A DNA stretch of 64,000 nucleotides, taken from the NCBI GenBank assembly GCA_030704615.1, contig CM060731.1:59024001-59088000 (forward strand), in the 5' to 3' direction. This document shows positions 11,454-55,059 of this stretch, one piece after another. How positions within the stretch are numbered: position 1 is the first letter of the stretch; every line of letters begins with the position of its first letter. Both the position numbers and the translations under genes were made by a program. A model generated the notes under the pieces. That model was not told the DNA's origin and did no database searches. It saw nothing but the letters and a program-made list of their open reading frames with translations. This DNA comes from Takakia lepidozioides (Eukaryota > Plantae > Bryophyta).

Positions 11454-11454
11454 T

Positions 11455-16150: not shown

Positions 16151-16159
16151 ATTTTTTTA

Positions 16160-24639: not shown

Positions 24640-25076
24640 GGCACCATTTTCCTAGGTTGGGCCCGAAAATGGCTAAGTCCCAAAACTGACTGAGCGCGGA
24701 ACTAGAAAAATGGCGCCGAATTTCCGGTTGCGGTTCCAGCCACCCTAGGGACTTAGCCATTTTCGGGGCCCTGAACTGGAAAAATGGCGCCATTTTTCCA
24801 TTTCGGGGCTGAAAATGGCTAAGGCCCAGATCTGACTGGGCCCGGAACTGGAAAAATGGCGCCGAATTTCCGATTTTGCTGCCAGCCACCCTAGGGACTT
24901 ACCCATTTTCGGGGGCTTAAACTGGAAAAATGGCGCAATTTTTCCATTTCGGGGCCAAAAATGGCTAAGTCCCAGATCTGACTGGGCCCGGAACTGGAAA
25001 AATGGCGCCGAATTTCCGATTTTGGTGCCAGTCAGATCTGGGACTTAGCCATTTTCGGCCCCGAACCGGAAAAATG

Positions 25077-25150
<74 letters not shown>

Positions 25151-26174: not shown

Positions 26175-27050
26175 CATGCAGGTAACCCGAAGAGCGGATG
26201 GATGGAAATCCGGCGCCGGATTTCCATCCTCCAGGTAAGTCAGCGCTGCAAATTTCTGTCACGCAGGTTACTTGTGAGCGGATGGATGGAAATCCGGCGC
26301 ATGATTTCCATCCGCCAGGTACAAAATTTCCGTCATGCAGGTAATTCGGAGCGCGGATGGATGGAAATCCGGCGACGGATTTCCATCCTCCAGGTAAGTC
26401 GGCGCGCAAAATTTCCGTCATGCAGGTAATTCGAAGAGCGGATGGATGGAAATCCGGCGCCGGATTTCCATCCGCCAGCTAAGTCGGCGCGCAAAATTTC
26501 CGTCGTGCAGGTAATTCGAAGAGCGGATGGATGGAAATCCGGCGCCAGATTTCCATCCGCAAGGTAGGTCGGCGCGCAAAATTTTCATCATGCAGGTAAT
26601 TCGGAGCGCGGATGGATGGGAATCCGGCGCCGGATTTCTATCCTGCAGGTAAGTCGGCGCTGCAAATTTCCGTCATGCAGGTAATTTGAAGAGCGGATGG
26701 ATGGAAATCCGGCGCCGAATTTCGATCCTGTAGGTAACTCGGAGCGCCGAATTTCCGTCAGGCAGGTAATTCGGAGGGCGGATGGATGGAAATCCGGCGC
26801 CGAATTTTCATCCTGCAGATAACTCGGAGCGCCGAATTTCCGTCATGCAGGTAATTCAGAGAGCGGATGGATTAAAATCCGGTGCCGAATTTCCATCCTG
26901 CAAGTAATTTGGAGCCCGGATGGACGGAAATCCGGCGCCGAATTTCCATCCAGCAGGTACTTTGGATCGCTACTGGATGGAAATTCGGCGCCGAATTTCC
27001 ATCCGCCAAGTAAGTCGAAGCGCCGAATTACCATCCTGCAGGTAATTCTG
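26175..27050 (+). repeat. array II: 85-bp tandem repeat, each unit with a 30-bp palindrome
   Basis: Unit starts at 26334, 26419, 26504, 26589, 26674; core GGATGGAAATCCGGCGCCGGATTTCCATCC. Confidence 0.92.
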
Positions 27051-27149
27051 AGCGTGGCCGCTAGGTTTTTGGTCTAAAAAGACACTAAACCTCTAGTTTT
27101 TTGGCTGAAGTCCACTTTTAGACACGTTTTTCAGGGAATTCTCGACTGC

Positions 27150-28320
27150 TAGGGGGGAATCCGAACGGCCCCGGACGGAAATTCGGCGCCGTTTTTCCAT
27201 CCTGGGAGGTTTTTATGTCGGCCTATTTTCAGCCAGACCCCCTGACACGACTTCCTTTGGGGGGGCCCGGATGGAAATTCGGCGCCGAATTTCCATTCGG
27301 GGGATGCTCTCTGTCGGACAGGTGCCGGCCTCTCCGCCCGAAGCGACTTCATCCGGGCGTCCTCTGTTGGAAATTCGGTGCCGAATTTCCGTCCGGGGGT
27401 TGTAATTTGACGACCAGGTGCTGCCCTCTCCCCCCGAGCCGGTTGTATTCGAACAACCCCGGATGGAAATTCGGCGCCGTTTTTCCATCCGGAGAGGTTT
27501 TTATGTCGGCCACTTTTCGGCCTGACCCCCCGACAAGACTTCCTTTGTGGGGGCCCGGATGGAAATTCGGCGCTGAATTTCCATCCGGGAGATGCTCTCT
27601 GTCGGACAGGTGCCGGCCTCTCCGCCCGAGGCGACTTCATCCGGGCGTCCCCTGTTGGATATTCGGTGCCGAATTTCCGTCCGGGGGTTGTAATGTGACG
27701 GCCAGGTGCCGACCTCTCCCCCCGATCCGACTGCATCCGAACGGCCCCGAATGGAAATTCGGCGTTGTTTTTCCATTCGGGGAGGTTTTTATGTCGGCCA
27801 GTTTTCGGCCTGACCCCTCGACAGGACTTCCTTTGGGGGGGCCCGGACGGAAATTCGGCGCCGAATTTCCATCCGGGGGATGCTCTCTGTCGGACAGGTG
27901 TCGGCCTCTCCGCCCGAGGCGACTTCATCCGGGCGTCCCCTGTTGGATATTCGGTGCCAATTTTCCGTCCGGGGGTTGTAATGTGACGGCCAGGTGCCGG
28001 CCTCTCCCCCCGGGCCGACTGCATCTGAACGGCCCCGGATGGAAATTTGGCGCCGTTTTTCCATCCGGGGAGGTTTTTATGTCGGCCAGTTTTTGGCCTA
28101 ACCCCCCAACAGGACTTCCTTTGGGGGGCCCGGATGGAAATTCGGGTCTGAATTTCCATCCGGGGGATGTTCTCTGTCGGACAGGTGCCGGCCTCTCTGC
28201 CCGAGGCGACTTCAACCGGGCGGCCCCTGTTGGATCTTCGGTGCCGAATTTCCATCCGGGGGTAGTAATGTGACGGCCCGGTGCCGGCTTCTCCCCTTCA
28301 GCCGACATCATCCGGACGGC
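27150..28320 (+). repeat. array III: 288-bp GC-rich tandem repeat, about 4 copies
   Basis: Repeated 91-aa ORFs offset by 288 bp (27213, 27501, 27789); three GGAAATTCGGCGCCGAATTTCC-like sites per unit. Confidence 0.92.
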
Positions 28321-28419
28321 CCCCCACTTTCTGACTGCATACCGTTGGCAGTTATTGCGCAAAGACCAGGGGCCGCATTCCGGAGACAAGGTTCATTAAC
28401 ACTCTGACTGTGGATTTTT

Positions 28420-29240
28420 GAGATAGTTGGCTCCCTGGATTTGGATCAGGCTTTGTCGCACGGACAAATCGGCACTGCATCCCCCTTCTACCAGGGAGCT
28501 TGCCCGCACGCCATCCTGGCTGTCTTGAGTGCACATCTCCCATGGCGGAAAACCCGAGCGCTACAGTGTACTGCCCTCCTCACGAGCATAGAGCTTCATT
28601 TCCGTGCAGAGGGGACATCTGCCGTGTGATGGAGAAATATCTGTGCGTTCGATACCACCTGAAACCGGGGTCGGTTTTTTTGGAGGAGGAAAAGAAGGAC
28701 TCAAACGACGTTGTTGTCGAGAGTATTGTTGTGCTCCACGATGATTTCGGCGATGGCAGGGAATGACGAGTTCCACCATCAAACAGCGTCATATACAAGG
28801 CTGTTGGGGACTTCATTTGCCCGCCAAATGCACCTTCTATCCTAGCGCCTTCCACGAAACAATCCGCGAATCAGAGTGTGGGTACCTCAAAGAGAGAAGT
28901 CCGCAACGAAGTAAATCCAGAGCCGAACCCATCAATGAAGACGAGCGAGAACCGGGTTGTTCACAACCTGTCCGACTCAGACGAGGTCATGGAAGTTCCG
29001 AGATCGACCTGGAGATCAGGCAAGTCCTCAATAGACGTCAGTGGACGAGGGAGTCATATTCCCAGCACGAGCACTTCAGTTCAATCCATTCTTGAAATTC
29101 TGCGAGGGCTTCACATGGAGGGACACCGCTCGGAGCTGGCCGGGCTGGACTACAGCAAGTTCGCAATTAAATCGGTTACATGCTTTCCCGCAGACGTCGA
29201 CGGTAATATCTTCTTTGAATTCCCTCCTCGGGCGGCCTTG
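28420..29240 (+). pseudogene. fragment of an uncharacterised, probably transposon-encoded protein
   Basis: Coding-like frames 28500-28766 and 28878-29297 (LDYSKFAIKSVTCFPADVDGNIFFEFPP), lying between palindrome arrays. Confidence 0.35.
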
Positions 29241-29499
29241 CGAGAGGGCCTTCGGGACACGCCATTGCTTCGAAGAGGCCAACAGCCGATGCGTTGAGCG
29301 TGAACGAGCTGCACAAACTCCTCCTTAGGGATTCCAGAAATCATTGATGGGGCAAAGGGAATCCTCCATATGGATATTTTCAATTGCATTTTCATGTATT
29401 AGACTTTTTTTTGCAGTGTAATGAAATGCACCCCAAAACTCCTGGAATGAGGCAATACTCCATTCAAACTGAGATCCAACAGAAGCAGTTGTGGGGCCA

Positions 29500-29900
29500 T
29501 TTCTGGAAAAATGGCGCCGAATTTCTCTATTTTGGGCCGAAAACTGGCTATGTCCCAACATGCACTGGTCTGGATGTGTCTGGAAAAATGGCGCCGAATT
29601 TCCCTATTTTGGGCCGAAAACTGGCTAAGTCCGAACATGCACGGGAACGATGTCTGGAAAAATGGCGCCGAATTTCCAGTTACATGACCCAAAACTGCCC
29701 AACATCTGTGCAATCCCCGGCACACCATGTACCGAAATTCGGCGCCACATTTCCAAATTTTGGGCTTAAACACCTGTCATGAGGGGACCGATAGCCGCGG
29801 AATTCGGCACCATTTTTCGCCAGAGAGACCTATTACCGCGAAATACATCGCGGATTTTTTCCGGTTACGGACCCTATTACCGTGAAATTCGGCGCCATTT
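29500..29900. repeat. array IV: dispersed GGAAAAATGGCGCCGAATTT units
   Basis: Copies near 29505, 29582 and 29656; inverted copies near 29735, 29800 and 29884. Confidence 0.8.
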
Positions 29901-31689
29901 TTGCACATTCGCTGGGAATTGGCATGAGCGGAAGACGAAATATCATGAGCACAACTCTCAAAACTACAATTTTCCCTTCAAGGTGCCGAATAATATATTT
30001 GTTTTTTCTGACACATTGCATTAAATTAATGTTTTATAATGTTTTTTATTTTCGAAATCTGTACTTCTGCTCATGAAAACCGATTGTCTTGCTACTCCGC
30101 TCATGTCGCTCATGCCGCTCATGCTCATGAAATAGCTAACCTCGGCAGGGATAGCTGAGGACCAGGGATAGAGGGGTGAATGCACGGTTGACTGGACCAA
30201 AATGAACGTTACCAGCACAGTTTTAGATGACTGCAATTGATGATGTCATCAATTGAAATTGAATTAACTCATTAAAACCAGCAAATATATATGTCATTGA
30301 ATTCCTAGCTTCAATACGCACCCATAGAATCCGATAAGAAATTACTCCGCTATGGACTTTTGAACATTATCATTGTGGACTGTTACCGGAATGAATGGAA
30401 TTACAATGGACTCAAGTTCTCATATGTGCCATAAGTGAATTCCATTAAAATTTGGACATAAGGTGGTCATTTTGGTCCCATCATAGGTATGGATTTGAAG
30501 TGACAAAATCATTTGTCATTTGACTCGTATGGACCCATATATGTCAAACAAATAGGCATTTTTTGAAAAGTCTATAACTCATCTTGTTTTTTGGATTTTG
30601 GGTGTCATTTGTTTTCTAGAAGTATAAAAACCTATAATCTTCAATGACTAGGTGTCATATTGAATTTTTTTAGTAAACTCTAATTTTTAGTTTTTCATAA
30701 TTTCTCTAAATAATAGACTAAAATGTTTAATGAATTATATCTTTAATAAGATATACCTTGTAGCCTGACACGACCTTCACCTGGGGATCATACATTGAAC
30801 AATATCCGGGTCTCAGCCCGACTCTCAGCCCCAGCACCCAAACATTGGCACTGATGGAAGAAACGGATCTACTTCAAGGAAAGATGTCTGGCCAAGGTCT
30901 CTGGATCAAGGAGCCTCCCCCAGATCAGCCACCAACCAACAACAGGGCACTTATCAGATCAAGACAATTCATAAACGTAGCATTCACCCTGCTCTATGCC
31001 AGACTGGAGACAGAGGGAAAAGAAGCAAATGAGCAGATGGAGCTCCAGCGCGCACTGGAACCCCCTCGCCCCTCCTACAATCCTCAGAGCACTTCTCCTC
31101 TGTCAACGTCCTCGGACTCCAATCACAACTCTACACCAGACGAGCATGGCGTAGCGCAGCCTCCACCCCAGAATCATCCCACTCAGTCTTTACTAAATAT
31201 GTTCAGTATATCATTATCTATCATTAAAAAAAACATTTTGGGATAGTATCCTCAACTTTTGTTTTTTGGTCATGGACTTTCATGGAGCAGGATCTGCCGT
31301 TTTTGGTCCACTCAACCCTGCAACTGCCCAGAAGTCCAGATTCATCCAAGAGGGCCGGATTTCAAACACAAGTTTCTTTCTGCTTCTCTGTGGATCAATA
31401 GCTACAAGCAATCGCGTGGGTAGATGGTCAACTGGAAACAGCAGCGGCAGCAGTGCAATTGATAGAACAAGGTGCTGCTAATGAAGGTACCTTCTTCAAC
31501 ACATTTCAGCCTGTTTTTCCCTGTTATCAGAGTTTTTCCCTGTTTTTGCCTGAAGGAGCAGGGTATGTGGGTCCAGATTCATCCACAAGGGTTGGACTTC
31601 AGGCTCCAGATTATCTTGATTCCATGTGGGTCAGTAGCTACAAGAAACCTGCATGGGTAGATGATAAACTAAAGGCAGCAGCTGTAGCA

Positions 31690-31905
31690 GCACAGATGAT
31701 AAAATCAGGCGCCTCAACCATGACCACAACTTCTGAAAGAGGATCAAGAGAGGGAGTCCACAATGCCTCTTCTGGCACTTCTGGGCATGTGAAGATACTT
31801 TGTGCGGCAGACAACCTGACAGAGGCTCTACAGATTATAAACCAAGGAGGCATTTCAGCAGATTCAGATATGTATGTATGTCTCTTGCTTAAGTGCATCA
31901 AGATG
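31690..31905 (+). pseudogene. N-terminal fragment of a PPR-like protein
   Basis: KILCAADNLTEALQII.QGGISADSDMYVCLLLKCIK resembles the first motifs of plant PLS-class PPR proteins; abruptly truncated. Confidence 0.5.
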
Positions 31906-33432: not shown

Positions 33433-33932
33433 NNNNNNNNNNNNNNNNNNNNNNNNNNNNNNNNNNNNNNNNNNNNNNNNNNNNNNNNNNNNNNNNNNNN
33501 NNNNNNNNNNNNNNNNNNNNNNNNNNNNNNNNNNNNNNNNNNNNNNNNNNNNNNNNNNNNNNNNNNNNNNNNNNNNNNNNNNNNNNNNNNNNNNNNNNNN
33601 NNNNNNNNNNNNNNNNNNNNNNNNNNNNNNNNNNNNNNNNNNNNNNNNNNNNNNNNNNNNNNNNNNNNNNNNNNNNNNNNNNNNNNNNNNNNNNNNNNNN
33701 NNNNNNNNNNNNNNNNNNNNNNNNNNNNNNNNNNNNNNNNNNNNNNNNNNNNNNNNNNNNNNNNNNNNNNNNNNNNNNNNNNNNNNNNNNNNNNNNNNNN
33801 NNNNNNNNNNNNNNNNNNNNNNNNNNNNNNNNNNNNNNNNNNNNNNNNNNNNNNNNNNNNNNNNNNNNNNNNNNNNNNNNNNNNNNNNNNNNNNNNNNNN
33901 NNNNNNNNNNNNNNNNNNNNNNNNNNNNNNNN
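33433..33932. other. assembly gap (500 N)
   Basis: Run of n. Confidence 1.
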
Positions 33933-38400: not shown

Positions 38401-38978
38401 GTTGCGAACTTAAGGCCCAAGTGCATGTTTCTTGAAGTAAATTTTGAGCGCTAGATGACTAAAGTTGCCATTTCACAACCCGGAGCAGTATATAAGAACC
38501 AGTGTTTTCTGCCTAGGCGAAACCTTAAAATTTTAAAATAGAATATCATAAATTCCCAATTTTCCATGGATGAAATCGCCAAACTTCTACAAAGATAATA
38601 TAACAAAGGATGATATAAATAGATGAAAGTACATATGAAGATGATTCTATCTAAATTTCAATGGATGAACATAATATATAACTATTTCTTGTAAAACTTA
38701 ATAGCCATTCGTGCTATTTTTCAAATTTAAGAAAAAAATCACCGATGAGAACGCTTCGAAGATCAAAATCATCAAAATTCAGCTAGCTAATCTTGGGATT
38801 ATATTCTTCTAATAAACATAAATGACGTGCTCGAGCGTGTAACCAAAGCAGCTAGAATCAAATACATATTGCAAAACAATGGTCAGGACTTCATACCTAT
38901 CACCTGAAATGTGGGTAAGTTAGCCATGTTAAGGTTTATGATAAAGATCTACAAACCACACAGCTCATGGGCCAATGT

Positions 38979-39461
38979 TGTAAGATGGAGTATTCCACCT
39001 GTTGCAGATACTCTTCTGTTCGTTGGCTGGATGAAAAAGCAGGATGGTTGGTGAAGCTAATTAAATGTGCCTAATGTTAGCCTAGGCCCTTGTCTTATTC
39101 CAACAGTAACCTAATCTAACAGGGTGGCTGTTGATGTGTGGAAGAAACTTAAAACAATCCTGGCAGCCAATAAGAGACCACCATTTGTCATTTCAGATTA
39201 GCCTTTTCCTTAATATAAAAAGCGGCTGGCTTATGCCAAACGCAAGATGTTTTGGGTGATGATAAGAGTGTACCTGGATGAGCCTGTTGTTTTGGATGTG
39301 TTGCACTTGATGCCCCTGCATGTGATTTGATTGGCCCACCTGTGGGGCTCCTCTAGCAAGGGATCCTTCCCATTTAGCTTGGCGTGCTTTACTGGCTAAC
39401 TTCCCCGCTTCAGCGCCCAAACTCGTAGAGGATAAGGGAATATCCCCCGGATATAGAAATT
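38979..39461 (+). repeat. 5' LTR of C (ends ...GAAATT, not CA)
   Basis: Direct repeat of 51702-52192. Confidence 0.93.
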
Positions 39462-39472
39462 TGGTGGAGATG
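39462..39472 (+). promoter_or_regulatory. primer-binding site complementary to tRNA-Ala
   Basis: TGGTGGAGATG directly after the LTR; complements the ...CATCTCCA-CCA end of tRNA-Ala as recalled. Confidence 0.75.
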
Positions 39473-39662
39473 GAGGACATTGCGAGAATTGTATCTGACG
39501 GCTCGGGTGTTCTAGGAATGATAACCTAGGTTTGATCTGGCTATGGTGCAACGACGGCAATACGGGAGATCTAGGAAAATGCGGCTCAATCCACCCTGCG
39601 CAATCATATGCTTCACCCTGTGTATGTTGTTGCTGCTAGTGTTGTGTCTTCCTACCTTGTGA

Positions 39663-40513
39663 GTGAACACTGTGTGCGCGGCAGCCATGGCATCCAGCTC
39701 GAGCAATGCTGTTTCCTTTGAGGTTGAGGACGATTCGTTTGAAGCTGTTTTTCTGGGTGTTGTACTTGACCTGACGTTGCCTGAGGTGCTGAAGCCTTAC
39801 GAAGGAGAGCCACCTGTGAGAGGGGATGCAAAGACGTGCATTCTGAAGGCGGGAAGTGCGAACAGCGTCGCAAGATCGCTGAAGCCAAGCAGGGTGCTTT
39901 TGCTGGCAGATTGCTGCAGAGGCTGCATACGAGAGAGATAGCCAAGCGCTTACCTCGCGCAGTAACACGTGAACGACTTGGATAGGGCAAGCTACTTACT
40001 TGGCCGCAGATTGGCGTTCCCAAGTTTGTTGTTACCCGAGATCGTACCCACAATCTTGAGAACTTTTTGCACCCCAAGGTTCCCAGCGGCTACCGTTTTT
40101 GGGAGCTCGTTCGTGGAGGAAGTGCGGCGGCGCTGACAAATATTCGCCCTGCCTGGACTGCTGACCAGCCTGCTAACGATTTTTCGTGGGAACAATCCGT
40201 TACTAGTGTCCCGCAGCACTTGTTTTGTTTCTCTTCTCGGGACATTGTGATCTTCCCTGGTGAAAGTTTTAATCAAGAGACCATTGGGCTTTGCTACGTC
40301 CAGGTTCCTACTGAGAAATATCCTTTACACTCGTTGGTGATCAAGGAGAAGGTGGTGCGTACGGTGACCCGCATTACATTCTGGTTAAAGGTAGCCCCAA
40401 CACTCTGGCATTTGCAGAGACAGGCAGTCTATCTCAGTCACAACCACCGCTTCATTTCTTCCTACGCTGGCACGGATTGGGAGAAGAGCATGTTACATCC
40501 TAGTGATAGGTGA
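39663..40513 (+). pseudogene. extra ORF of unknown function upstream of gag in C
   Basis: Coding-like frames 39663-39941 and about 39990-40513; no retroelement motif recognised. Confidence 0.45.
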
Positions 40514-40609
40514 TTCTCCATGGACGATTTTTGTTGCTCTACTGAATGCTCACAAGAGCTAAATCTAAACTTTTAGAGAATCAAACCAGTAAGATGGGAG
40601 AGGTGAAGG

Positions 40610-42100
40610 ATGCTTGTGAACGAATTTTTGAAGCCAGTGAGCCTAGTACTGAGTTCACTGCGGGTGGGACACTTGTGCCATGCGATGCGTCTTATTTCTG
40701 ACTGTCCTGCTTTGTTGGAATTGCTCCTTGCTAAATGTGCTCAGAATGTAGTTGTGCCTGCAAGATCCCATGAGACCCGCATGACGAAGCAACCTTATCC
40801 GGAATACAAGGTGGGGCAAAACTTTGGATAATTTTCTCACTTTTTTTTAGATGAGTGTGAAGATGAATGCAGTCCCACCTACTTTTGTCACAAATGCATT
40901 TCGTTTTTGTCTCAAGGGAGAGGCCCTAGAACTCTTTGAGGCCACTATCAAAGATCTGGGGGATGTGCCCTGGCCTGAAGCTAAAGGTTTGGCTGAACAG
41001 TTATTTCACGAAGAAAAGTTGTTTGATTATTGTGTACCTGAGAGACGTACAAGGAAGGGGAAAGTATACATAAGTACTATACTGATATATGTCAAGGACG
41101 AGAACATGACAAAACACAAACAAGAGATCAGACTAGAGGTACAAGACTAGACAAGAAATCAAGGTCGGCGTGGTCGAATACATGGTAGGTGAACATGAAT
41201 CAAGATGATCTTTATAACAATGGACAATAGTACAAAATATTGGAACTCGACTCGGATACTGGAATGCTGGAAACTGGACTGGATACTGGAAGCTGGACTG
41301 GAGTACTGGAGTTGGAACAAGAGTAGCTTGAACTTGTGTTGGCGAGACTGAAGAGTGTCCAGTCTCGCCTCCTATATATACTGGCTATTAAGAAGCTTCC
41401 CCGAGAAGCTTCCACTATGGAGGTTTCTTGCTGGAGAAGTTTCCTCCAAAAGGAAGCTTCCTGAGTAGTTTCCCAAGTTATTCTTGGTAATTTGGTAAAC
41501 TCTCGGTAACTTGGTAAGTAATGATAAATCATGGTAGATCATGGTAAATCATGGTAAATCATAGTAAGTCATGATAACTTTTGATAATATGGTAACTTCT
41601 GGTATTTACTCCTGGTAAGTTCCTCTGGGCTATGTCCGTGACAATATACGTACAGCTGTGTATAAGATTGTTCTTGTTCTCTCGGAAATGCCATTGGCCA
41701 TTAAACTTGGGTTCATCCAAGAACTGCCTCCTGCAGAGCAAGTATATCTGCAACGAAATAAGTACTCCACCGAAAAAGAAATGGTTCGGTTAATTGAAGA
41801 ACGCTTGCGCACTAAAGCAGCTAAACGGGGAGTTGTACCCAAAATTCAACCTACTCACATGATGAGTGATGTATCAGAACTGGTGATGAGCACTAACAAG
41901 GGAGGAAACGGTTCGACTTGAATTACAGGCCTTTAAGACTGATGCTCGCTGGCAAGCCCCATCAAATTTCAACCAGAGTGGTGGCAACAGGGGACGTACT
42001 AATACTGGTGTTGGTTATCAAAGTACTGCAGCATGTTATATTTGCAAAGGCAAGGATCATGTCACCAGATTTTGCCCTTACCAGGCTGATCTGTCAAGTA
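40610..42100 (+). pseudogene. gag: gag of C, interrupted at 41031-41643
   Basis: NAFRFCLKGEALELF, FIQELPP, knuckle CYICKGKDHVTRFC near 42030-42076. Confidence 0.7.
41031..41643. mobile_element. solo-LTR-like insertion in gag of C
   Basis: TG...CA ends (TGTGTACC...CCGTGACA), internal TATATATA, short CTGGA and ATCATGGTA repeats; TSD imperfect. Confidence 0.6.
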
Positions 42101-42245
42101 TGATTGAAAACTTTGAAAGGGAAAAAGAAAAAAAGGGTAAGGCTCGTTTAAACGAATAGGGTCACGTGCGAATGAAGGGACAAGTAATCGTGGAGTTAAA
42201 CCTTCAAAACCCCTAACTACTGTTCTTGTTTCTGACACTTTCAAG

Positions 42246-42660
42246 TTGCTACATACTGAAGTGCTTAAACCCAGGAAGAAGCTGCGTATACACCCACTAC
42301 TTACTCAATGTCATGTAGGCCATTTGTCTTTTTCCTGCATAGTTGACACTGGGTGCACGGTTTTTGCTGTTCCATTACATGTAATCCAGGTGTTGGGTTT
42401 GAAACTGGTACCTGCCAAAGGGCTAGAAGTTACTATAGCTGATGGCACCAAGTATGAACCTTTAGGGCTTGTAACCTTGCCCATTGGAATAGCTGGACAG
42501 GTGGTCACAGTGACTGGTATTGTCACTATGGGAGAGCAATTTTCTGATTGGCTTGGATTGGATGAGGGAAGCCAGGGCAGAAATCAACTTACACACTAAT
42601 GTCATGACCTTGAGTGGCAATGGTACCAGACATACTATCAATCTGAACTCTGTCCCTATC
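42246..42660 (+). pseudogene. aspartic protease of C
   Basis: CIVDTGCT; after a frameshift, FLIGLDWM. Confidence 0.82.
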
Positions 42661-42860
42661 ATGGCTGGGAGTTCTACTCGACATCTCATTCAGATGAAGG
42701 CTGTTGCTCAAGAGGTTCGCCAAAGAGCTGGTAATTCATACAACTGGACCAGATTCTTTAATTTTAATAGTGACACAACCACTACCCTCCTCCAATGGCA
42801 TTTGCCTGAACCAGGTAAGAAGACTGGAGCCCCTCTTCCTGTTTCCAGCAATTCAGTACT

Positions 42861-43140
42861 TTGAGGGCTCCTCATGATATTGATTTGCCTGCAATGTCCC
42901 AAATCTTGGCTCCCACTGGCCTGGCTTTTATTTATCTTAAGGACATGTATATGGAAATCGAAGGCTGGAAGAAGTTGTCCTTGCATAAACACTGTTTGGT
43001 GGCTTCTGGGGTTTTGGACAGAGGGTACAGAGGAGAAATCAAATTACTCCTTGCTAATCCTGAGCGTATGATGGTCAAAATCAAGAAAGGTCAGGTTATG
43101 GCTCGACTCACTGCCTTGCCCTTGACTACGATTCAATCTA
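42861..43140 (+). pseudogene. dUTPase-like domain between protease and RT
   Basis: LRAPHDIDLP...ILAPTGL...VASGVLDRGYRGEIKLLLAN...IKKGQVMARL matches trimeric dUTPase motifs 3 and 4. Confidence 0.82.
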
Positions 43141-43319
43141 TAGAGGCTGATCTCAATTTTCATGACATTGGTCTTATAGATAGCCCTTTGGACAGACTTG
43201 TTGCCATGACCAATATTGTTGCAATCAGTGATGACACTATTCTCACCTTAGAGCAAGAGGAGCACTTTGCCCAAGTGCTGGCAGAAATCCATGTGGGTGA
43301 TATAACCAAGGTTCAACTA

Positions 43320-44642
43320 GCTAAATTGCATGCTTTGATCCGTAGGAACTTGTCTGTATTCAGTCGAGGGTCTCATGATCTTGGTAGAACCAATGTTTTG
43401 AAACACGAGATTATCACTAATGGGCATCTTGTCAAGCAATATGCCTATCTTGAATCTGTCCATGAGAGGGCAGTAGTTCAAGATGAAATTAAGAAAATGT
43501 TGAATGCTGGTGTCATCCGCCCCTCTGTGGCACCTTGGGCCAGCCCGATTGTATTGGTAGCCAAAAAGGATGGTTCCACCAGGTTTTGTGTCGACTTCAG
43601 ACGGCCCATGACTAAGAAAGATGTGTACCATTTGCCAAGAATTAATGAGACCCTAGATCAGCTTAGTGGTGCCACCATTTTTTCTTCCCTTTGACCTAGC
43701 TTCTAGCTTTTGGCAAGTCCCTCTCACATAAGCATCTAAAGAAAAAACTGCTTTTACATGCAGATATGACATGTATCAATACGAGACCATGCCATTCGGA
43801 CTCTTCAATGCCACGACAACTTTCCAAAGAAATCTGAGTCCGAATCTGAGATGGGAATGTGCATTGGTATACATTGACGACATTAATATTTATTCTGCTA
43901 CTTTCGATTCTCACCTCATTGACCTGCAGCGTGTGTTATGTCGTCTCAGAGCTGCAGGTCTCAAGGTTAAAGCCAAAAAATGCGATTTTTGCATGGCAGA
44001 GCTCAAATTTCTTGGCCACATCCTTTGTGGGGAAGGCATCAAACCTGATGTTAGCAAAATCCAGGCAGTATGAGACTTCCCAGTTCCACGTGACAAGCAT
44101 TGTGTCCGTGCATTCCTTGGCCTTGCCTCCTATTATAGACGTTTTATCCTCCATTTTGCTAACATGGCTGGTCCCTTGTTCAGGCTTCTATGCAAGGATG
44201 TTCGCTTTCACTGGGGCATACCTGAAACCAACTTTGAACAGCTGAAGATAGCCCTCGCAACTACTCCAGTGTTGGTTTTTCCATACTTCTCTCTCCCTTT
44301 TCTTTTGCAAACAGATGCCAGTGACATGGTTGTTTCTGCAGTTCTCAGCCAAGTGCGAGATGGTAGAGAACATGTTGTTGCTTACGCATCTAGGCGGCTT
44401 GAAAAGAATTATAGTATTACTGACAAGGAGGGGTTGGCCGTCATTTTTGGTGTAAAACACTTCAGGCAGTACCTGCATGGTTGTTATTTCACCGTGGAGA
44501 CAGATCATCTACCTCTCAAAGCCCTTAAAACTCCTCGAGAATTGTCCGACAGACTGGCTAGATGGTCTTTACTTCTTCAGGGCTTTGAATTTGACATTGT
44601 TTACAAGAAAATGAAGGAAAACAGCAACGTTGATGCGCTTAC
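43320..44642 (+). pseudogene. RT and RNase H of C
   Basis: PWASPIVLVAKKDGSTRFCVDFR, MPFGL, VYIDDI, LQTDAS, VVAYASR, KEGLAVIF, ETDH, NVDALT. Confidence 0.93.
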
Positions 44643-47600
44643 TCGGGGAGAAACCAAACACTAGAAGCATTCGTGTCTTTTCCGAATTGACTGCATGTCC
44701 AAAACCACTGAGGGAACAACTTTGAGATGTTTGTTACTACTGCACAGTCGTAACGGATAAATTCACATTTCTAATGGCGGATAGAAGTTGCATCAATGAC
44801 TCCGCAGTCGGCACAATATTCGCGGCGATTTAATTCAATTACGTAAATTGTTTTTTTTTTAAAAACAGCAATTACAAGTGGTTTTAAGCACTAGAGAACG
44901 ACTCTTAACAACTAGGCGTTCATTGCACACCCTATTCAAAAATGGAATTTTTATAAGTGCTCCACATGGCTCATGACGTGGAACATTTTAATGTATTTTA
45001 GGGCTTGTGTGGCTCGTAGAGATTGTTCTAATCGTCGGATGTAAAATGATCTAAGGGTGGAAGAGTAACTTTGTCCTTTGCCTGAATTTGTCTAAGTGTT
45101 GGGAGAGGGATGGAGGCTTGAGAGAGAGACGAACAAGTGATGCGAGAAGGACGAAGACCAAATCGAGGCCCAGGTCCTGTTGTTGCAAGCGTTTATGGCG
45201 TCAAGGGCGCATTATGTGCAAATGTGGGCTCTTGGCTCCCCTTTGTACCATGATTTGGTATTCTTCCTATGATCACAAGGTTCTTGGGGTAATCAGCTTG
45301 GTCTTAGCAACCCATATTTTAATCTCTGCCCGCTCAGCTGCACCGTGGTGGTTCTTACGAACCAATCCCACATTACCTGACTAGAGATACAAGCAACATG
45401 CACAAGAGGTCTTCTTGGGTTCATGGTCAGTCTAATCCGCAATGGGTCATGACACAAGGTAGAGGACAATGTGGTGAGGGCACCTTCTTCTTCGAGCTAT
45501 TTCAGCCTGTTTTGCCGAGATGTAGTGTCGTGGAGTGCGATGCTTGCAGGGTATGCACAACAGGGACGTGGGATGGAGGCTTTGGAGACCTATGAAGTTG
45601 CGAAGGGAGAGTTTGATAACATGGCTGAACAAGATGTTGTCTCAAGGAACATGCCGAATCTCGCAAGATATGGCTAGCATGTGTGCGGGATGAGGGCATT
45701 GGAGACATATGAGCAAATGTTGAGAAGAGGTGCAGCCTGACCGGGTCACGTTCATTTGTGTTTGCAATGCATGTGCAAACCTGGCAGCCCTGGAGACTTG
45801 GTAAAGGGCAAAGAGGTCCATCGTGACATTGTCAAAGCTAGAACTTCACCAGATGTAACAATACCTCGTCGACATGTATGCCAAACGTGGGAGCATTCCC
45901 TTGTGGACAAGGACTGTTAAACAATATGGCTGAGCGAAATGTGGTGTGGTGGAACGTGATGATTGTAGGACATGCACAACATGGGCGGGGATTGCGGGTT
46001 TTGGAGACCTATGAGCAAATGATGTGGGTCTAGGGGGTGAAGCCCGAGCACATTACCTTTGTTTGTGTTTGTAGTGCATGTGCGAGCCTGTTGGAGAAGG
46101 GCAAAGAGGTCCATGGTTGCATCGTCAAAGCTGGAATTGTGGTAGATGTCATTCTGAACATGAATACCCTTCTAGATAGGGAGTGTTCAACAATATGGCT
46201 GAGCGAAATGTGGTGTCGTGGAAAGTGATTATCGCAGGACATGCACAACAGGGGCGGGGATTGCAAGTTTTGGAGACCTATGAGCAGTTGATGTGGGAGG
46301 GGGTGAAGTCCGACCACATTACGTTCAGAGAGTTCAAATGCCTCTCCACCATGACCTTGTTTAGCTAACCATGTCTTGCTGATGTTGTTGTCTTGCACTT
46401 GAGCTGTTTTTGGACACTGGCTGGAACATCCACAAGGCAGCTCTGCTCGAGAGAGAAATCAGCTTGAATGCAGGGGCAGATTTTGAGATCACAATTGCCA
46501 CTCAAAACGTTGTTCTTTGCACCGGCATGGCATGTCAGCATGCATATTAGCCCAAACACATTACTCCGTGAGCCTTCCACTGCCGGAGTGTGCCCATTCA
46601 AGCCAGATCTTCGAAACGCAGGGATGGAACGGGGTTTTGAAACCAGCATTGCCTAATTGGATACCCAATTCAGCTCCGCATCTTGGTCCATTAATCTGCT
46701 GCACATTGTGAAGTTTTCTGCCCGTTCACCGCAAGTTGAAGAAGGAGTATTCTTAAAACATGGGTACTCATAATCTGAAAATGGCTCCAGCTTATGTTGC
46801 TTGAGTGCGAATATGAGTGTGGTTGGCTTGGCAGCTTTACATCTGGTCGATCCCACTCGATATGATGAACAGGTTCAGCTTTACTTCTCTCACACAAAAG
46901 ACGCTGCCAAGATGGGGTTTGCTGCCCTACCGTCATTGTTCTGGGGTGCAACATACAATTAATCTGGCCCATGGCGAGGGGCCTTGCCTTCCACCAATCA
47001 TCTGTAAGTCCTGTGAAACTGTTTTTGTGGCAGTTTGTAAGCAGTGGGCAACGATGGTGGGCTGTTGTGGGATTTGATGAACTCAATGCTGTGTACTGAC
47101 AGCAACCCCTCATCTCTTATGCAAGCATTCAACAAGCCAAGTTGACTGCAGAGCATATTCAGCCCCCCACGTTTCTAGTTGCCTAATGTTCTTCATCTCC
47201 TGGGCAGAGCATTTTCCAGGGTCTCCATCTGTGATGACACACTATCTTCTCATGTAGTTCAGCTTCTGGTCTTGCTCTTGTTTGCACCACCCCAATGAAG
47301 GGCACTTCGCACCTGCTTGATTCTCTCTATATGGTTGTCTTGGGTCTTGGCAGGGTTTCCCACAACCGCCTTTCCTTTTCAGACTGCCAGTCATCAGCCT
47401 CTTTCTCCAATGCTTCACTTTCTTCCCAAGTGAAGTGCTCTCCTCTTTTATGCTTCAACGTCCCTGCAGGTGTCTTTTCCTTCATCTCCCGTGGTGCTTT
47501 CGAATGAATGAGCACTGATTTACATCTGTTGGCAACACTTACGGTGTCCCTTTCCTTGCATGCCACTGCAGGCCCGCATTGACTTTCTTGGCAGGGAAGT

Positions 47601-49390
47601 CTCCTCCTTCTCCCTCATTTTCTGGCTCTGTTGGTGCCCCACTCACCATGCTATCAGGGCTGCACTTATTTTGTGGTGTTGCGCCAGCCAAGGGCGATCT
47701 TTCACTGGTCCGATTGTTGGCAACAGCTGATTGGAGTCTTCTTGGCAGACTCTCCCACGAGCTCCCATCAATTTCAGGCATCAGGTTTTCTACCCTGCCC
47801 TTCCACTTTTCATAAGCGAGGTGCCTGTCTTCCTCCCTTTCACTCTTCAGCCTCTCAGGCAGATTTTTCTTCATGCGATTGCTGCTCCCATACTTCCAGT
47901 CCTTGTTTAATTCTCTCCAGCCATCACCCTCAGATTTGACAAGGTGCTTCCTAGAACAAGTCTAGGCTGTCATCGTCAACTGCTAGCAACAAGGCAAGGT
48001 TGTATGCATGATTCGTGCGAGGCATGGATAGTTGAAGGAGCAAGGATAGAGTGTGGGTGCAGATTCACCCAAGAGGGCCAGACTTCAAGCTCCAGATTAA
48101 CTATGAAGCTACAAAAAGCCTGCATGGGTAGATGGTCAACTGGCAGCAACGGCACAATTGATAAAATCAGACATTGTTAATGAAGGCATCTTCTTCAGCA
48201 CATTTCACCCTGTTTTTCCCTCTTATTAGAATCGGTCCAAAATTTCCATGTTGAATTATGCAAGTTAACTGGTTGAGTGAATCTAGTTTGGAGTGACTTT
48301 GACATGATACTGCTATGTGACAACAGGAAAGTATCAAAAAACAAGTAACAGACATGAGGAGAAGCTGTGGAATGAATACTTTTCTGCCCCCAGTCAATGA
48401 TGGGACAACCGAGGCAAAAAGGTGAATGCCTGCTACATTTCAGAGAGTAGCAGACGCAATTGAGCATAGGAACTAGTGTGATAAGCTAAGTTGGGTGTTT
48501 TCTAGAACAAATGTAGGTTGTCATTGTCAGCTACTAGCAGCAAGGCAAGGATGAATGCATGATTTGTGCAGGGGCATGGATAGCTGAAGGAGCAGGGATA
48601 GAGTGTGGTCCAGATTCATCCTAGAGTGCCAAATTTCAAGCAAAAGATTTACCTATGATTCCCTGTGGATCAATAACTACAAGAAACCTCCATGGGTAGA
48701 TGGTCTATTCCGTGGAACTCACTGAAGTCTTGCATTATGAGGATAAGAACTGCTTGACTTACACGAGGCCTTGACCCTTAGGCAATCCCCAGAGCAGCAA
48801 TAGCTTTTGGGCTACTTTTTTACTTTGTGTTTTTCATTTTGTCCCATAAGCTCTTTGAGCTTTCCGCAGATGTAATAAAGTACCATTTTGTTTCATTTCA
48901 TTCATTTTCATTTCATTTTGTTTCATGGCATGTCTTTCATTGTTTGTGCATTTCTAATGCATGATTAGTTCTCTTGTATGGCATTACTAGTCGACTCACT
49001 ACAAACACCAAAACTCCAAAGCATGAATCACTATGAATGATTGTTCCAGTAATTTCGAGCACTTCATGTAAAGTAGTAAAGCAGTGGTTGCGCCAACTTC
49101 CGCAGTTGCAATTGCCACTGGGCATGTAGCACTGCAAGTTATGTGGTCTACTACCACGTGGCGCCCCGGGCCCGTGGCCACGTGGCAGCAGTGGTGCTCG
49201 TCGTGGCGCCGCCACGTCGGCATCCACATCGTCGTCCACGTCCGCGTCCATGTGTCACCGCGCTTCAGTGAGTCGGTCCACTCATCCGGAGGGAAAAAGT
49301 CAAAGTCAGCCCAAAAGGTCAGACACACGGGCGGCCCGCCTGGTTACGCCACGTGGTTCTTCAGCATTAATCGCATTAATCGCTGAGTAG
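44643..49390 (+). mobile_element. about 4.75-kb insertion carrying host gene fragments (possibly Helitron-like)
   Basis: Separates RH from IN; candidate 5' TC and 3' hairpin (49361-49386) plus GTAG; no clear TSD. Boundaries tentative. Confidence 0.35.
45515..46330 (+). pseudogene. PLS-class PPR gene fragments
   Basis: RDVVSWSAMLAGYAQQGRGMEALETY, GVKPEHITFVCVCSACASL.EKGKEVHGCIVKAG, FNNMAERNVVSWKVIIAGHAQQG; frameshifted. Confidence 0.85.
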
Positions 49391-50189
49391 TTGTTCGCGC
49401 GTCTGCGTCCTTTACCACTCCAATCATTGGATGTCCAACCCAACTACCATGTCTGTTGTAACTAGTCTGTTGTAACTTCCAGTCGATCCCAGTTTTTTGA
49501 CTTTTACGACTCAAAATGAGTCGTTACCCCAGTGGTAAATGACACGAATGCTTCTAGTGAAAACACATGTTCCTTATACAACCCTAGATGACTTGGCTCG
49601 CATGCAGAATCCTGATCGTTTGCTGCCTGATTCACATCCATGTGTATCCTTTTTTAGTTTGATGGATGAGTTACCCTATGTCATTACACCTGCTAGGCAT
49701 TTCATCACTTTTGATGTTCATTGAGATGGTCACTTTGGTACTTGCGTGTCTGGACTGGTCCTCTTTGCTTGATCAATGTTGCCTGGTTACTCCAGCAGTC
49801 TCTTCTTCTTCTTCATGGCCATGTATTTTTTATGGTTACTTCCCTTAGGACTTGTACTTCATGCCCAGTCTACTATCATAAGTAAGCCTGATTTAGATGC
49901 GATGCAAGGTTATATTATTTGAAGACCACAGGGGCGGACACTTCTGATTACCTGCTATTAACCCACTGTTTCTTTGGCTCTGTGCATGATAGGCATGGAT
50001 GACTCCCTGTTCGCAGCCCTTCTCCACAAGTGCAATGCCGGCACACAACTCCCAGGTATTTCCAAGACACTTCAAAGGCAAGTTAACTATCACCTTCCCT
50101 GTCATGTGGAATGTGAAGGTAAATTGTTGAAGAACATTGTCTTGGATGGCCTTATCAAAACCGTGGAGGTTCCTAATAGGAGCTCAATT

Positions 50190-51250
50190 TCAGAGTTGCT
50201 TGAATTATATCATGCCTCACCCTTTGCTGGTCACCTTGGTGTGACCAAAACTTTCAAACGTTTGCAATAACTGTATACCTGGAAGGGTATGCATCAGGAT
50301 GTTGCCTCATTTGTTTCTAAGTGTGTTGAATGTCATGCCCAGACATTGCTTCCTCGAGCTCGCGCTTCATTACCCATGCAACCTATACCTGTCACTGGCC
50401 TCTTTGACAGGGTGGGCTTAGATCTTGTGGGACCTCTTAAACTCACCGAGAAGGGTCACTCCTACATAGCCGTGGCCACTGACTATTTCTCTAAATGGGT
50501 TGAGTTCCAACGTTTGGTCGCGAAGGATGAAGATTAAGTTGCATAGTTTTTCTTTGATGAAATCATTCTAAGGCATGCATGTCATCTTGAAATACTTACC
50601 GATCAGAGTACCGAGTTCTGCAATCAGCTGATGTAGATGATATGCTTCAATCTTGGGGTAAAACACCGCACCACGGCGCCTTATCATCCCTAGTGCAACG
50701 GTCTGACTGAGCGATTCAATAAGACCATGTGTTCCATGTTGGAGAAGAATGGTTCTCTGTTGGGTGATTGGGATGTGGCTCTTCCAGTTTTGATTTTCGC
50801 TTATAGGACATATGTTCATGCAAGTACCGGGTATACACCCTTTGAGCTAGTATATGGCAGACTTGCTTGCAGCCTTTTACATGACACTCCGCTGATTCCA
50901 GTCACTAATACTGACCCCATTGATTGGGATTCATTCTTGGTTGAGATGACTGCTAAAAGGCAAAAGCTCCAATCTTCTGCCAAAACTAACATAACCAAGG
51001 CCCAGGGAATTCAGGCTCGCAATTATAACCGGAGTGTGTGTTATTCTGAAGAATTTCTGCAGGGTCAATCTGTGTGTGTGCGGCTCCAACAAGGGAAGAT
51101 CATTTCCAAGGCTTCCAAGCGTATCGAGGGCCCCTATCTGATTGTGGGAATCTTGCGCGGTAGACAGTTTAAGCTGCTCCCTCAACATCCCTTTGTCCCT
51201 CCTCTTTCCCACACTGTCCATCTTGATTCTCTTGTGCATTGCAAATTAGT
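50190..51250 (+). pseudogene. integrase of C
   Basis: YHASPFAGHLG, CVECH, VGLDLVGP, TDYFSKWVE, TDQSTEF, NGLTERFNKT, IEGPY. Confidence 0.92.
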
Positions 51251-51701
51251 TTTTGATCTCACTTGTATTAATGTCGAGGGCCGTCGTGTTATTCTAAGTC
51301 TAGCCGTGCTGCATGAGTGCAGATCATAAGTTCCTGCTTTTTGCTTTTAAACTTGGCTATGTGCAGTGGTGGAGCTGCATCAGTTTTGTGTGGCTTGGCT
51401 TGACTTCACCAGCTAGCTTTAGTGTTTTTGCATAGACATCTGATTGTGAGAGACGATGAGAGCTAAGGAATTGTTCTTATGAGCTTGCATCAATTATATG
51501 GTTTGGGGATTTTCCTGTTGGGGGTTTTGTCCTTCACCCACTTTGTAGGATAAGGTTTTCCCCAAAGGTTTTTTCTCCCCTCTCCTATTGGATGCCTAGT
51601 CCTTCTTTTGAATTTGAAATTTGGCTTGGTGGGCCTTGCATTGGTAAAATTTCCGAAGCTCGCTGGAGCTCACTCCTCCTGGTGTGGGCGGGTCTTACAT
51701 A

Positions 51702-52201
51702 TGTAAGATGGAGTATTCCACCTGTTGCAGATACTCTTCTGTTCGTTGGCTAGATGAAAAAGCAGGGTGGTTGGTGAAGCTAATTAAATGTGCCTAATGT
51801 TAGCCTAGGCCCTTGTCTCATTCCAACAGTAACCTAATCTGACAGGGTGGCTGCTGATGTGTGGAAGAAACTTAAAACAATCATGGCAGCCAATAAGAGA
51901 CCACCATTTGCCATTTCAGATTAGCCCTTTCCTTAATATAAAAAGCGGCTGACTTATGCCAAACGCAAGATGTTTTAGGTGATGATAAGAGTGTACCTGG
52001 ATGAGCATGCTGTTTTGGATGTGTTGCACTTGATGCCCCTGCATGTGAGCATGTGATTTGATTGGCCCACTTGTGGGGCTCCTCTAGCAAGGGATCCTTC
52101 CCATTTAGCTTGGCGTGCTTTACTAGCTAACTTCCCCGCTTCAGCACCCAAACTCGTAGAGGATAAAGGAATATCCCCCGGGTAGAGAAATTGGTCTTAC
52201 A
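51702..52201 (+). repeat. 3' LTR of C with extra terminal GGTCTTACA
   Basis: Matches the 5' LTR up to GAAATT (52192); 52193-52201 is absent from the 5' LTR. Confidence 0.93.
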
Positions 52202-55059
52202 ATGTAGCTTTCATTGAAGGTAGAACCCAAGACCCCCTGAAGATAAAGATAAAGATAAGTTTCTTTAACGTCGAGTGAATTTACTGAGCCTACTGCTCAA
52301 CACACAGGCCATCGAGGGCCCAATGGACGGTTTGAAGGCACATGTTGAAGGATTGAACCCGGGATCACCTAGGCCTGAAGAGTAAGCCAACCTACAGGCC
52401 TGCATGCAACACGCAACTGACAGCCCACAATTCAGGCCCTTGAGGAGGGGGAAAAATAACCCCCTTTCATTTATGGGCCATGGAGGCACATCGGATGATA
52501 CGCCACAAACAATCCCCACAGGGAGCAGGGCAGCGGCTTTGAACCTTGAACCACCAAGGTGACGCATTGTGCACTTAACTTACCAGCCGATGTGCTTGTA
52601 CATTTCCTTTGTAATTTTTACCTTTCTTTTGACAGGCCATTTTCTTTTTTGCCTTTCTCTGTGACAGGCAATTTTTTGTTTTTGCCTTTCTTTTGACAGG
52701 CCGTTTTTCTTTTTTTCTTTTTTTTTCCTGTCAAATGCCTTGTGACAGGTGCAAAATCAGCCTTGACCGGGAGGGACAAGACTTCTGATAAAGAATGGCC
52801 CATGGCTTGAGCACCTTGAGCTGGGTCATCTGGCCTTCACCATAGTTTTGATTCGACAAAAAGGCCATTGGATAATGTGGATGATGGCCCTTGAAGAAGA
52901 AAGAAATCGTAGCTTAGCAATCCACAATTATTCTTCATAGTTTTCAATGATGTTTTGGCTGTCGGTTTCTTCGCACTTCATTCAAGAGCCCATTTCAAAA
53001 ACCCAGTGTTGTGCGAAAGCGTGTAGGTAGGTCCCCTAGCTGAAAGCAAACACAACAAGGACTGTTACCACCAACATGTGAGAAACACAGATCGGTTCAA
53101 CAACGATCACAGTTGGCATCCTGTACTACTATGTACTATGTGAGAGATTCATTCAAACCTTACTTGATAGGGGGACTTCAACTGAAGCCCCTCCAGACTC
53201 TAAAGTGACGATTTCCAACACGTTCTTCACATTAAAATGTCAAGCGACATTGTAGGGTTTAAAGTTCCAACGTTCAAACTTTCACACCAGAGAGCTCTGT
53301 TACCTATGTCAGTCAAGAGAAGAATATGGGGGGATTGATGATAGTACTAGAGCGCCCGGTGATCAGTGATAGCTTTGAACTTGAAAGAAGATAGACAAGT
53401 CCTGGCAATTTGAATCTCGACCCAGAAAGAAGATGAACGAATTTGAATTGTTGTCCCAAAATAGGTCCTGACTTCATTCTGTACGCAGAAGGGTATAAGC
53501 CAGGAGTCGTCTGCGCACGACACGTCACATACCATAGGGGGCGCGTTTTTAGTTCGTCCACAGCCTCTGCACTATCAATGTTTGGTTTCTTGCTCATTGT
53601 TGGGCCCACTACTTCATGATAGCCAGTTGCTGATCAGCTATTTATATGCCTGTTCATGTGCACTGGCTCAAGTAAATGGCAGTTCCCTGATTTTTGGTAA
53701 TCAACTTCTAAGTATTCGCTGCATGCATCCAGAGTGTGACTGATGTACTCTGGGCATCAAGTCAGCTCATTTCCTGACTGAATGCGCAGTTGCTGCTTGT
53801 GTGGCACTGTGTTCAGAAAGATGATGAGCGGAATTGGGACTCTAGAATGCTGTCGATCAATTTTAGCAGGCTGGGTACCTGGAGGAATATTATTTGCAAC
53901 CCCGGAGCGTCATAGCCATGTCGTGACATCTCAATGTTAAGTTTCAAAGTTGAATCTTGATCCAGCTGTGTATCATGCACTGTTAAGGATGTCGTGTGAC
54001 GAAGCTTTTCATACAGATGGGCTATTCGCTGAAGCTTCGCTGGGAAAAAACTGCTCGGAAATTGAGAGTCGCAACGTGCCTACAATTTTAGTCTAAAGTT
54101 GGACTTTGCTGTTTTGCGACAGGTGTACTGAACCCCTACGAAGTCAAAAGTACAGTGGAAGAGCCCCACAGTGCACACAGTTACAATCGGGATCGAAATT
54201 AAACTAGTCGAGCATGCCCACAATTCAAGTAGTGCCTATGCTAATTCCACGATCACCGCCGGAACCCAGCTGATCAGTTGAGGGTCATCGACTTTACATG
54301 AGGAGAAAATGACATCGTGCTGAACTGACAAGTTGAAGTCAAAATCTGTCGCTTGCAGCAGATTTAGACACAAATTAGTTAGGTACTACCTCGATGGAGA
54401 ACAGCCATAGCAACATCAACAGAACTGGGCAGAAGATAATGAAGGTTACTGTTCTCTCCCTCGTTCTTTCCCACAAATCTGGCGAAAATCACGGAAAGAC
54501 GGTAGACAGAACTGGGGATGATTGCAAGGAGCAGCGATAAGACGTGGGAGACTACGAAGATTTCTCAGGGAGGAGGGCAATTCACGCGCAAGAGAAACCA
54601 GCCAGGGGGGTTGCTAGCCATCGGGAAAAAGAGCGTCGTGAGCTCGGGTCTCCCGCCCTTGTTCACGCATTCCTGGAGCATCCCCACCCTTACACTGAAC
54701 CCAGCACGCCAACGGAACTTTCAGGGTATGTGGGCGGGAAAACGTGCACCGAACCCTATATCCCACAAAAATCGGGGCACTGCATATTGTTCCGTGCCCC
54801 GAACCCCAGCGCCATATTCAGGGCCCGAATACGCCCCTGAATCCAAGTGAACGTGACCAGCCCCATGTCTAGCGCGTGCGTGTCCGCATCTTGGTAGCGA
54901 CCACCCCCCTTCCTTCCTGCCAATGGGAGGCCAGGTGTGCGGAGATAGGCTGGGCAATTCAGGGGCAAGGGTGTGCCAGAGTGGGGGCTGCCTCGCCACA
55001 GAACCTAATTTTGGCATTACAGGGAGTCTTTGGGGCTCAAGGGTGGGATACTCTTAAAG

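Follow-up and report, generated by a model that had tools for sequence, protein, structure and literature searches.

The window, that is, the whole 64-kb stretch of Takakia lepidozioides DNA that was analysed, holds between positions 38979 and 52201 a retrotransposon with long terminal repeats (LTRs) that is flanked by ATGT on both sides. Its layout can be written A1-PBS-internal-PPT-B1-TA-A2-B2, in which A is the repeat running from TGTAAGA to GAAATT and B is the 9-mer GGTCTTACA. The features are, in order of position:

38975..38978, + strand: left target-site duplication (TSD), ATGT, 4 bp, recognized by its sequence match with the right one
38979..39461, + strand: 5' LTR, unit A, 483 bp, with a TGTAAGA start and a GAAATT end, without terminal CA
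39462..39473, + strand: primer binding site (PBS), starting with TGG and adjoining the 5' LTR without spacer
39663..42159, + strand: broken upstream open reading frames (ORFs) and likely gag region, from the ORFs
42141..42596, + strand: aspartic protease fragment (PF13975, E 7e-4, a weak match below the cut-off)
42861..43133, + strand: dUTPase between protease and reverse transcriptase (PF00692, E 4e-10)
43302..44658, + strand: reverse transcriptase and RNase H, disrupted by stop codons and frameshifts
44659..49559, no strand assigned: nested CACTA-type DNA element with PPR fragments, 19-bp terminal inverted repeats and a 3-bp AAA duplication
50175..51329, + strand: integrase interrupted by stops, with PF17921 matches and a visible zinc-binding domain and D, D, E residues
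51680..51690, + strand: atypical G-rich tract at the polypurine tract (PPT) position, assigned by position
51691..51699, + strand: B1, GGTCTTACA, repeating the right-hand tip inside the element
51693..51708, no strand assigned: perfect 16-bp palindrome TCTTACA-TA-TGTAAGA, resembling an LTR-LTR junction with a 2-bp spacer
51702..52192, + strand: 3' copy of unit A, 491 bp, with a TATA-like motif at 51937
52152..52201, + strand: putative composite right attachment site, the last 41 bp of U5 plus B2, from the inverted-repeat comparison
52193..52201, + strand: B2, GGTCTTACA, right terminus with a CA end
52202..52205, + strand: right TSD, ATGT, equal to 38975-38978

The outer ends are regular, with TG at 38979, CA at 52201 and ATGT present twice, a 4-bp match that has a chance probability of about 0.005. 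The LTRs themselves depart from the canonical rule of two coextensive TG...CA repeats: the 5' LTR lacks the last 9 bp and its GAAATT end passes straight into TGGTGGAGATGG at 39462. The 9-mer GGTCTTACA is found in only two places in the 64 kb, at 51691 and 52193, and the chance of meeting it at a fixed site is 4e-6. Between the two LTRs there are 18 mismatched columns out of 483 and one 8-bp indel; their K2P distance is 0.0385. An earlier, sequence-only reading had pointed out the 5' LTR that runs without CA into the PBS, the succession of GAAATT, GGTCTTACA and ATGT on the 3' side, and the perfect palindrome; all three are found exactly at the positions it gave. It had also placed the internal 9-mer behind a PPT-like tract, and here the 9-mer and the G-richness hold while the purine character does not, since purines make up only 9 of the 14 letters at 51680-51693, a tract lying 11 bp before the TG. 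Position alone makes this tract the likely plus-strand primer. A hairpin role for the palindrome was considered and found no support (z from -1.3 to -1.9, with the 3' end unpaired).

Judged by its predicted enzymes, the element is a decayed Ty3/gypsy retrotransposon. A Pfam scan of 13 ORFs gave the domain order protease-dUTPase-RT-RNaseH-integrase and no tyrosine recombinase match among these ORFs, and neither a chromodomain nor an extra RNase H was matched in the element. The gag-like region at 39663..42159 gave no significant match in the Pfam scan and carries a CCHC-type motif in frame (41890-42159). The 4.9-kb CACTA-type element is a later insertion with no part in the mechanism, and without it the retrotransposon measures about 8.3 kb. 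Taken by themselves, the PPR fragments and the types of element present suggest that the host is probably a non-seed plant. The PBS presumably belongs to tRNA-Ala; no tRNA gene pairing with it was found in the window. The closest proteins are P0124 (59%), P0125 (56%) and P0142 (55%), and P0125 has the PR-dUTPase-RT-RH order in common with the element. In a quick tree, built from 61 of 62 chosen rows with one 196-aa piece from the element and no labelled Selgy or Phygy references among them, this piece and the three proteins form one clade (SH-aLRT 98). Named protein matches, at about 45-55%, come from algal, fungal and animal elements, and a dUTPase between PR and RT has been described in a fungal gypsy element (PMC2864245). 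The window contains a second LTR element (10783-18937), which is canonical, with TG...CA ends, a 5-bp TSD and a PBS located one base after the CA.

Other copies of the family and the origin of the two LTRs

The segment 51640-52226 was compared with 146 contigs (run X3) and 174 contigs (run X4), from four contig sets that go back to a single sample, which may itself have supplied the assembly, and in which contigs are not equivalent to loci. Among the loose-end rows listed (12 of 74), the LTR is left at 52192 straight into PBS letters in 5 of the 146 contigs (X3) and 8 of the 174 (X4); the first 12 PBS letters are the same at all these contig ends, and the letters further downstream differ from the window. 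Contigs that start at the TG (51702) next to unrelated flanks number 6 (X3) and 7 (X4), with a flank agreement of 0.49-0.51. Reading through B2 into flanks other than that of the window was seen in two X3 contigs among the matches listed, and no match combining B2 with a foreign flank is among those listed for X4. On the PPT side, position 51683 is covered by 12-13 contigs of other copies that have one common difference there, and each run has 6 contigs in which B1 starts with a different letter. PPT-B-TA-LTR is bridged by diverged contigs, one of which covers 51653-51760 without a gap and with 16 differing letters. By depth arithmetic, the fraction of LTR-end depth that continues into B2 would be 29-34% (X3) and 57-68% (X4), a weak measure because contig depth is not copy number. 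Tandem-LTR (go-back) joints are absent from the 4 and 2 joints listed, and loose ends at 51699 from the 24 of 480 and 12 of 74 matches listed; both are weak negative results. The permuted layout is thus real and family-wide in the contigs examined. The sequence-only reading had allowed for other copies with TCTTACA before the PBS, or without GGTCTTACA upstream of the 3' LTR; what the contigs present is the direct LTR-PBS passage (5 in X3, 8 in X4) and an ungapped PPT-B-TA-LTR bridge. A deletion through TGGT microhomology that is private to the window copy is refuted because these 5 and 8 contigs of other copies share the LTR-PBS junction, and is also rejected on the T count, since it would leave two T's before GG where the 5' junction has three.

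The LTRs also record how they were made. At 19 LTR sites the letter of the 3' LTR is the minority one among contigs; the 5' LTR agrees with it at 10 of these, carries the majority letter at 8 and a different one at the last, as counted from 34 LTR rows among the 40 listed, with 102 further rows outside these. Eight sites private to the 3' LTR differ in 80-100% of the read depth. The rare letters common to both LTRs call for one template, and the 80-100% difference at the private sites means that there are no fixed 5' and 3' LTR lineages. On these letters, both LTRs were regenerated by reverse transcription from one template.

Searches for relatives elsewhere had a limited yield. An exact 27-base LTR pattern had no match in metagenome contigs, and a protein-based locus search had none in viral contigs. 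The same kind of search found 20 loci with 26-52% identity in metagenomes, and none of the 7 metagenome loci of at least 4 kb that were examined provided a usable pair of LTR ends. In genome contigs, it found one distant locus with canonical ends and CA before the PBS (L021), which serves as an outgroup control only. None of these searches gave a relative from the element's own clade together with its flanks.

A putative right attachment site and the proposed route of integration

An observation new in this analysis is that the inverted repeat in U5 comes into register only when exactly 9 bases, those of B, are added. Comparing the last 41 bases of U5 with the inverted left end at 449 offsets gave the highest score, 20 matches of 41, at offset 9 (background mean 10.4, sd 2.7 over the 449 offsets). 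This best offset is the length of B, and the first 50 bp of the LTR recur, inverted and imperfectly, as the U5 end plus B2. For the U5 of the 5' LTR, 31 offsets were compared; the top value was 19 of 41, and offset 11 gave 17. Of the 43 positions beyond the 7-bp core, U5+B2 agrees with the inverted left end at 20 and PPT+B1 at 6. The shuffle p values are 0.53, 0.087, 0.069, 0.016, 0.017, 0.006 and 0.003 for 15-50 bp, uncorrected for the seven lengths, and the length of the inverted repeat was picked after the data were seen. Retroviral attachment sites are described as imperfect inverted repeats of 12-20 bp (PMC1180852), longer than B alone. Because U5 is in register only with the 9-base B added, a full right attachment site would exist only after head-to-tail joining; the repeat thus suggests that this site is assembled only once the cDNA ends are joined. 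Such a composite site could explain why the junction palindrome would be cut instead of the one on the PPT side. The inverted-repeat signal may also be a relic of a canonical ancestor and not a working signal, and an ancestor with B at the U5 end is the likely origin of the permuted layout.

Because tRNA priming makes the minus strand start at the PBS, the cDNA terminates on the right where the U5 of the 5' LTR ends. This right end is GAAATT without CA, and therefore B cannot arrive there by canonical copying. B is available from B1 only, which is copied to the left end, and therefore B2 needs the left end to be joined to the right end. We consider it very likely that head-to-tail joining precedes integration, whichever way the joint is made and with a jump of the reverse transcriptase included. 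More specifically, the family probably integrates only after its ends have been joined into a circle or dimer, with integrase cutting at CA-TA-TG. In detail, the plus strand would start at 51691 and yield a reverse-transcribed LTR of the form B-TA-A, so that the linear cDNA would start with GGTCTTACATA and end with GAAATT. This linear cDNA would not yet end in ...GAAATTGGTCTTACA, an end that would arise through the head-to-tail junction. Blunt joining of the cDNA ends would place GAAATT directly before GGTCTTACA-TA-TGTAAGA, and the joined form would most likely be a 2-LTR circle whose junction has GAAATT abutting GGTCTTACATATGTAAGA. Integrase would nick after CA on each strand of the junction palindrome, so that two CA-3' ends result, each with a 5' overhang of 2 nt as in normally processed ends, and strand transfer would yield the 4-bp TSD and the observed permuted layout. 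A 2-LTR circle would carry two palindromes, of which the junction-side one would be preferred over the PPT-side one; from a PPT-side cut or from a 1-LTR circle, dead-end products with a PPT-B terminus would result, and none of these is among the matches listed, a weak negative result. The sequence-only reading, a 2-LTR circle cut at an internal palindrome, is supported, with the U5 register as an independent line in its favour, the circle and the cut being what we infer from the layout. As 2-LTR circles are minor, end-joining products in the elements studied (bioRxiv 10.1101/2022.09.25.509424, PMC7197481, PMC12786077), with those of HMS-Beagle reported at 6.4% of eccDNA reads (bioRxiv 10.1101/2022.09.25.509424), efficient joining needs an explanation of its own.

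The genomic sequence is the same for a covalent 2-LTR circle, a head-to-tail dimer and an end-to-end jump of the reverse transcriptase. In the jump, the plus strand, once at the U5 end, would change template to the minus-strand 3' end and go on to copy B-TA, creating a junction without host ligation or a closed circle, where integrase would then cut. It predicts the same layout and would explain the exact 9-base junction as well as the absence of tandem-LTR joints among those listed. Against it, no microhomology fits, GGT pairing predicting three T's at the 3' junction where two are seen, and end-to-end jumping by LTR-type reverse transcriptases is inefficient; we regard the jump as rather unlikely. 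Two variants were rejected: joining through GGT microhomology with the PBS, which gives the wrong T count, and a detour in which the reverse transcriptase copies B first, which would place B in the 5' LTR as well.

The remaining explanations dispense with joining. The source elements could be canonical, carrying B ahead of the PBS, in which case the asymmetric copies would be a derived subset that was repeatedly deleted or converted. The presence of TGGT at both the PBS and the U5/B2 junction fits this proposal, and since 12 of 74 loose ends were listed, canonical 5' LTRs could be among the other 62. We find it improbable: B is missing before the PBS in 5 and 8 contigs whose letters further downstream differ, the T count misfits a microhomology deletion, B1-TA beside the PPT is left unexplained, and a source without 5' B cannot yield canonical progeny with B2. 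Spread at the DNA level through the TG...CA ends, by cut-and-paste or copy-out and without reverse transcription of the ends, has its precedent type in Ginger- or composite-transposon-like models, and would agree with the imperfect terminal inverted repeat of about 50 bp and the 4-bp TSD. This very improbable route is already largely refuted, as only 18 of 483 columns separate the two LTRs yet 85 of the 146 and 94 of the 174 contigs are less than 95% alike, 10 of the 19 minority letters are common to both LTRs among the rows listed, 7 of the 8 private 3' letters show a read difference of 80-100% and the eighth one of 91%, where fixed lineages would give 50%, and the PBS is conserved across copies. 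Least credible of all is that B2 belongs to the host target, with the element inserted next to sites resembling GGTCTTACA and a 4-bp match that arose by chance: that chance is about 0.005 and some 5' flanks have letters in common, but B2 equals B1 and inverts the left end, U5 comes into register only if the 9-base B is included, and the flanks beyond B2 vary among contigs.

Significance and comparison with known systems

Circle integration was reportedly claimed for avian retroviruses in 1984. The role of 2-LTR circles as integration precursors is the subject of a long dispute, and they are generally called dead ends (PMC1180852, PMC12786077, PMC7197481). The question is hard to test in canonical elements because cleavage of the junction leaves no genomic trace there; with the cut that we propose, 9 bp away from the join, the route would be recorded in each insertion, and base-precise predictions follow for the cDNA ends, the junction and the cleavage site. 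In the literature searched, which excludes subscription journals and Repbase Reports, we found no description of such a layout in an integrase-encoding LTR retrotransposon. Families of this kind would be overlooked or wrongly trimmed by LTR finders that require both LTRs to read TG...CA.

Among the Ty3/gypsy elements, Selgy is described with a 4-bp TSD, a tRNA-Ala PBS in 90% and a size of 4.4-6.7 kb, and Phygy with an NCGN target, a tRNA-Trp PBS and a size range that covers about 8.3 kb (PMC6317226). Both are non-chromovirus elements of non-seed plants and resemble our element in the order PR-RT-RH-INT, the lack of a chromodomain and of an extra RNase H, and the 4-bp TSD. The element is like Selgy in its 4-bp TSD, would be like it in its PBS if this is of the presumed tRNA-Ala type, and is unlike it in size (about 8.3 kb), whereas it is like Phygy in size and differs in its TSD, which is ATGT and not NCGN, and in its PBS, which we take not to be of the tRNA-Trp type. 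Unlike both, it has in addition a dUTPase between PR and RT, no CA before the PBS and a B-TA palindrome beside the PPT.

The nearest biochemical parallel comes from foamy virus, whose integrase is reported to cleave its LTR-LTR palindrome in vitro, cutting both strands behind CA so that AT protrudes at the 5' ends (PMC1180852). That junction, a CA-NN-TG palindrome giving 2-nt 5' overhangs, is of the type proposed for the element (PMC1180852). As described, however, the foamy virus cut falls at the ligation point, restores a canonical provirus without genomic trace and coexists with direct integration of linear DNA. In the element, the proposed cut lies 9 bp from the join and leaves permuted LTRs, and the route appears obligatory.

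Split-direct-repeat retrotransposons with a tyrosine recombinase (YR) use a circular intermediate. Those known as Ngaro, PAT and TOC1 are described with the arrangement A1-[ORFs]-B1A2B2 (PMC8547959). This repeat layout is that of the element, in which B measures only 9 bp and a 2-bp TA spacer separates B1 from A2. Ngaro, PAT and TOC1 encode a tyrosine recombinase, whereas the element has a DDE integrase, a protease, a tRNA PBS, TG...CA ends and a 4-bp TSD.

Finally, in the copy-out/paste-in transposition described for the IS3, IS30, IS21 and IS256 families, the abutted ends in the circle junction are the integration substrate, as proposed here; there, the transposase makes the circle from DNA and there are no LTRs, whereas for the element we propose reverse transcription and end-joining (PMC3299598). 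If true, the proposed route would connect the integration of retroelements with the circle-junction chemistry of bacterial insertion sequences and with the split-repeat layout of YR elements. That the family represents a Ty3/gypsy lineage with an obligatory 2-LTR circle, whose split attachment site acts as a completion checkpoint in the style of IS circles, is to us an evenly balanced proposition.

Flanks and interior of the permuted-end element

The 3' flank of the decayed Ty3/gypsy element with permuted LTR ends (38979-52201) contains an 11-base stretch (within 52217-52229) similar to the letters that predominate in the 5' flanks of other family members. Next to this stretch, from about 52240, begins a repeat of very high copy number. 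The similarity could reflect a target preference or be a tie-breaking artefact arising from few contigs. The adjoining repeat (52240-52570) has a contig depth about 100 times that of the LTR and carries a short simple-repeat end; by resemblance, we take it to be the likely end of a SINE or LINE on the minus strand.

Inside the permuted-end element, broken ORFs lie after the PBS and upstream of the likely gag (39663-40513); they have no Pfam match and constitute a possible extra 5' ORF. A non-autonomous CACTA-type element with TIRs of 19 bp and the duplication AAA is nested further downstream (44659-49559). It encloses fragments of PPR genes as well as pieces that it has in common with 23035-23225 and 31334-31708, a content that is a Pack-type capture.

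Repeat arrays and assembly gap

Arrays with unit lengths of 85, 96 and 144 bp occupy 24600-29800 and include long perfect palindromes, the longest of 76 bp (25876-25951), around the common core GGCGCC; a DNA transposon may be their source, with the arrays as its subterminal repeats. The assembly gap of 500 bases (N, 33433-33932) lies about 5 kb upstream of the permuted-end element, clear of the junctions studied.

Other gypsy elements

The gypsy element at 10783-18937 is canonical, with TG...CA ends and a 5-bp TSD (CTGAC), and is inserted into a second gypsy element on the minus strand, with RT-RH-INT at about 8646-10768. Elsewhere, an inverted duplication of 1.3 kb (2-1287 and 5102-6386, arms 94% alike) encloses a gypsy gag-pol, and gag is present on both strands. 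The distant relative used as outgroup, L021 (155-8443 of its contig), is a complete young gypsy element of animal type, with LTRs 99.5% alike and canonical ends. Its contig is assigned to a bacterial MAG and is likely a eukaryotic contamination of that genome record.
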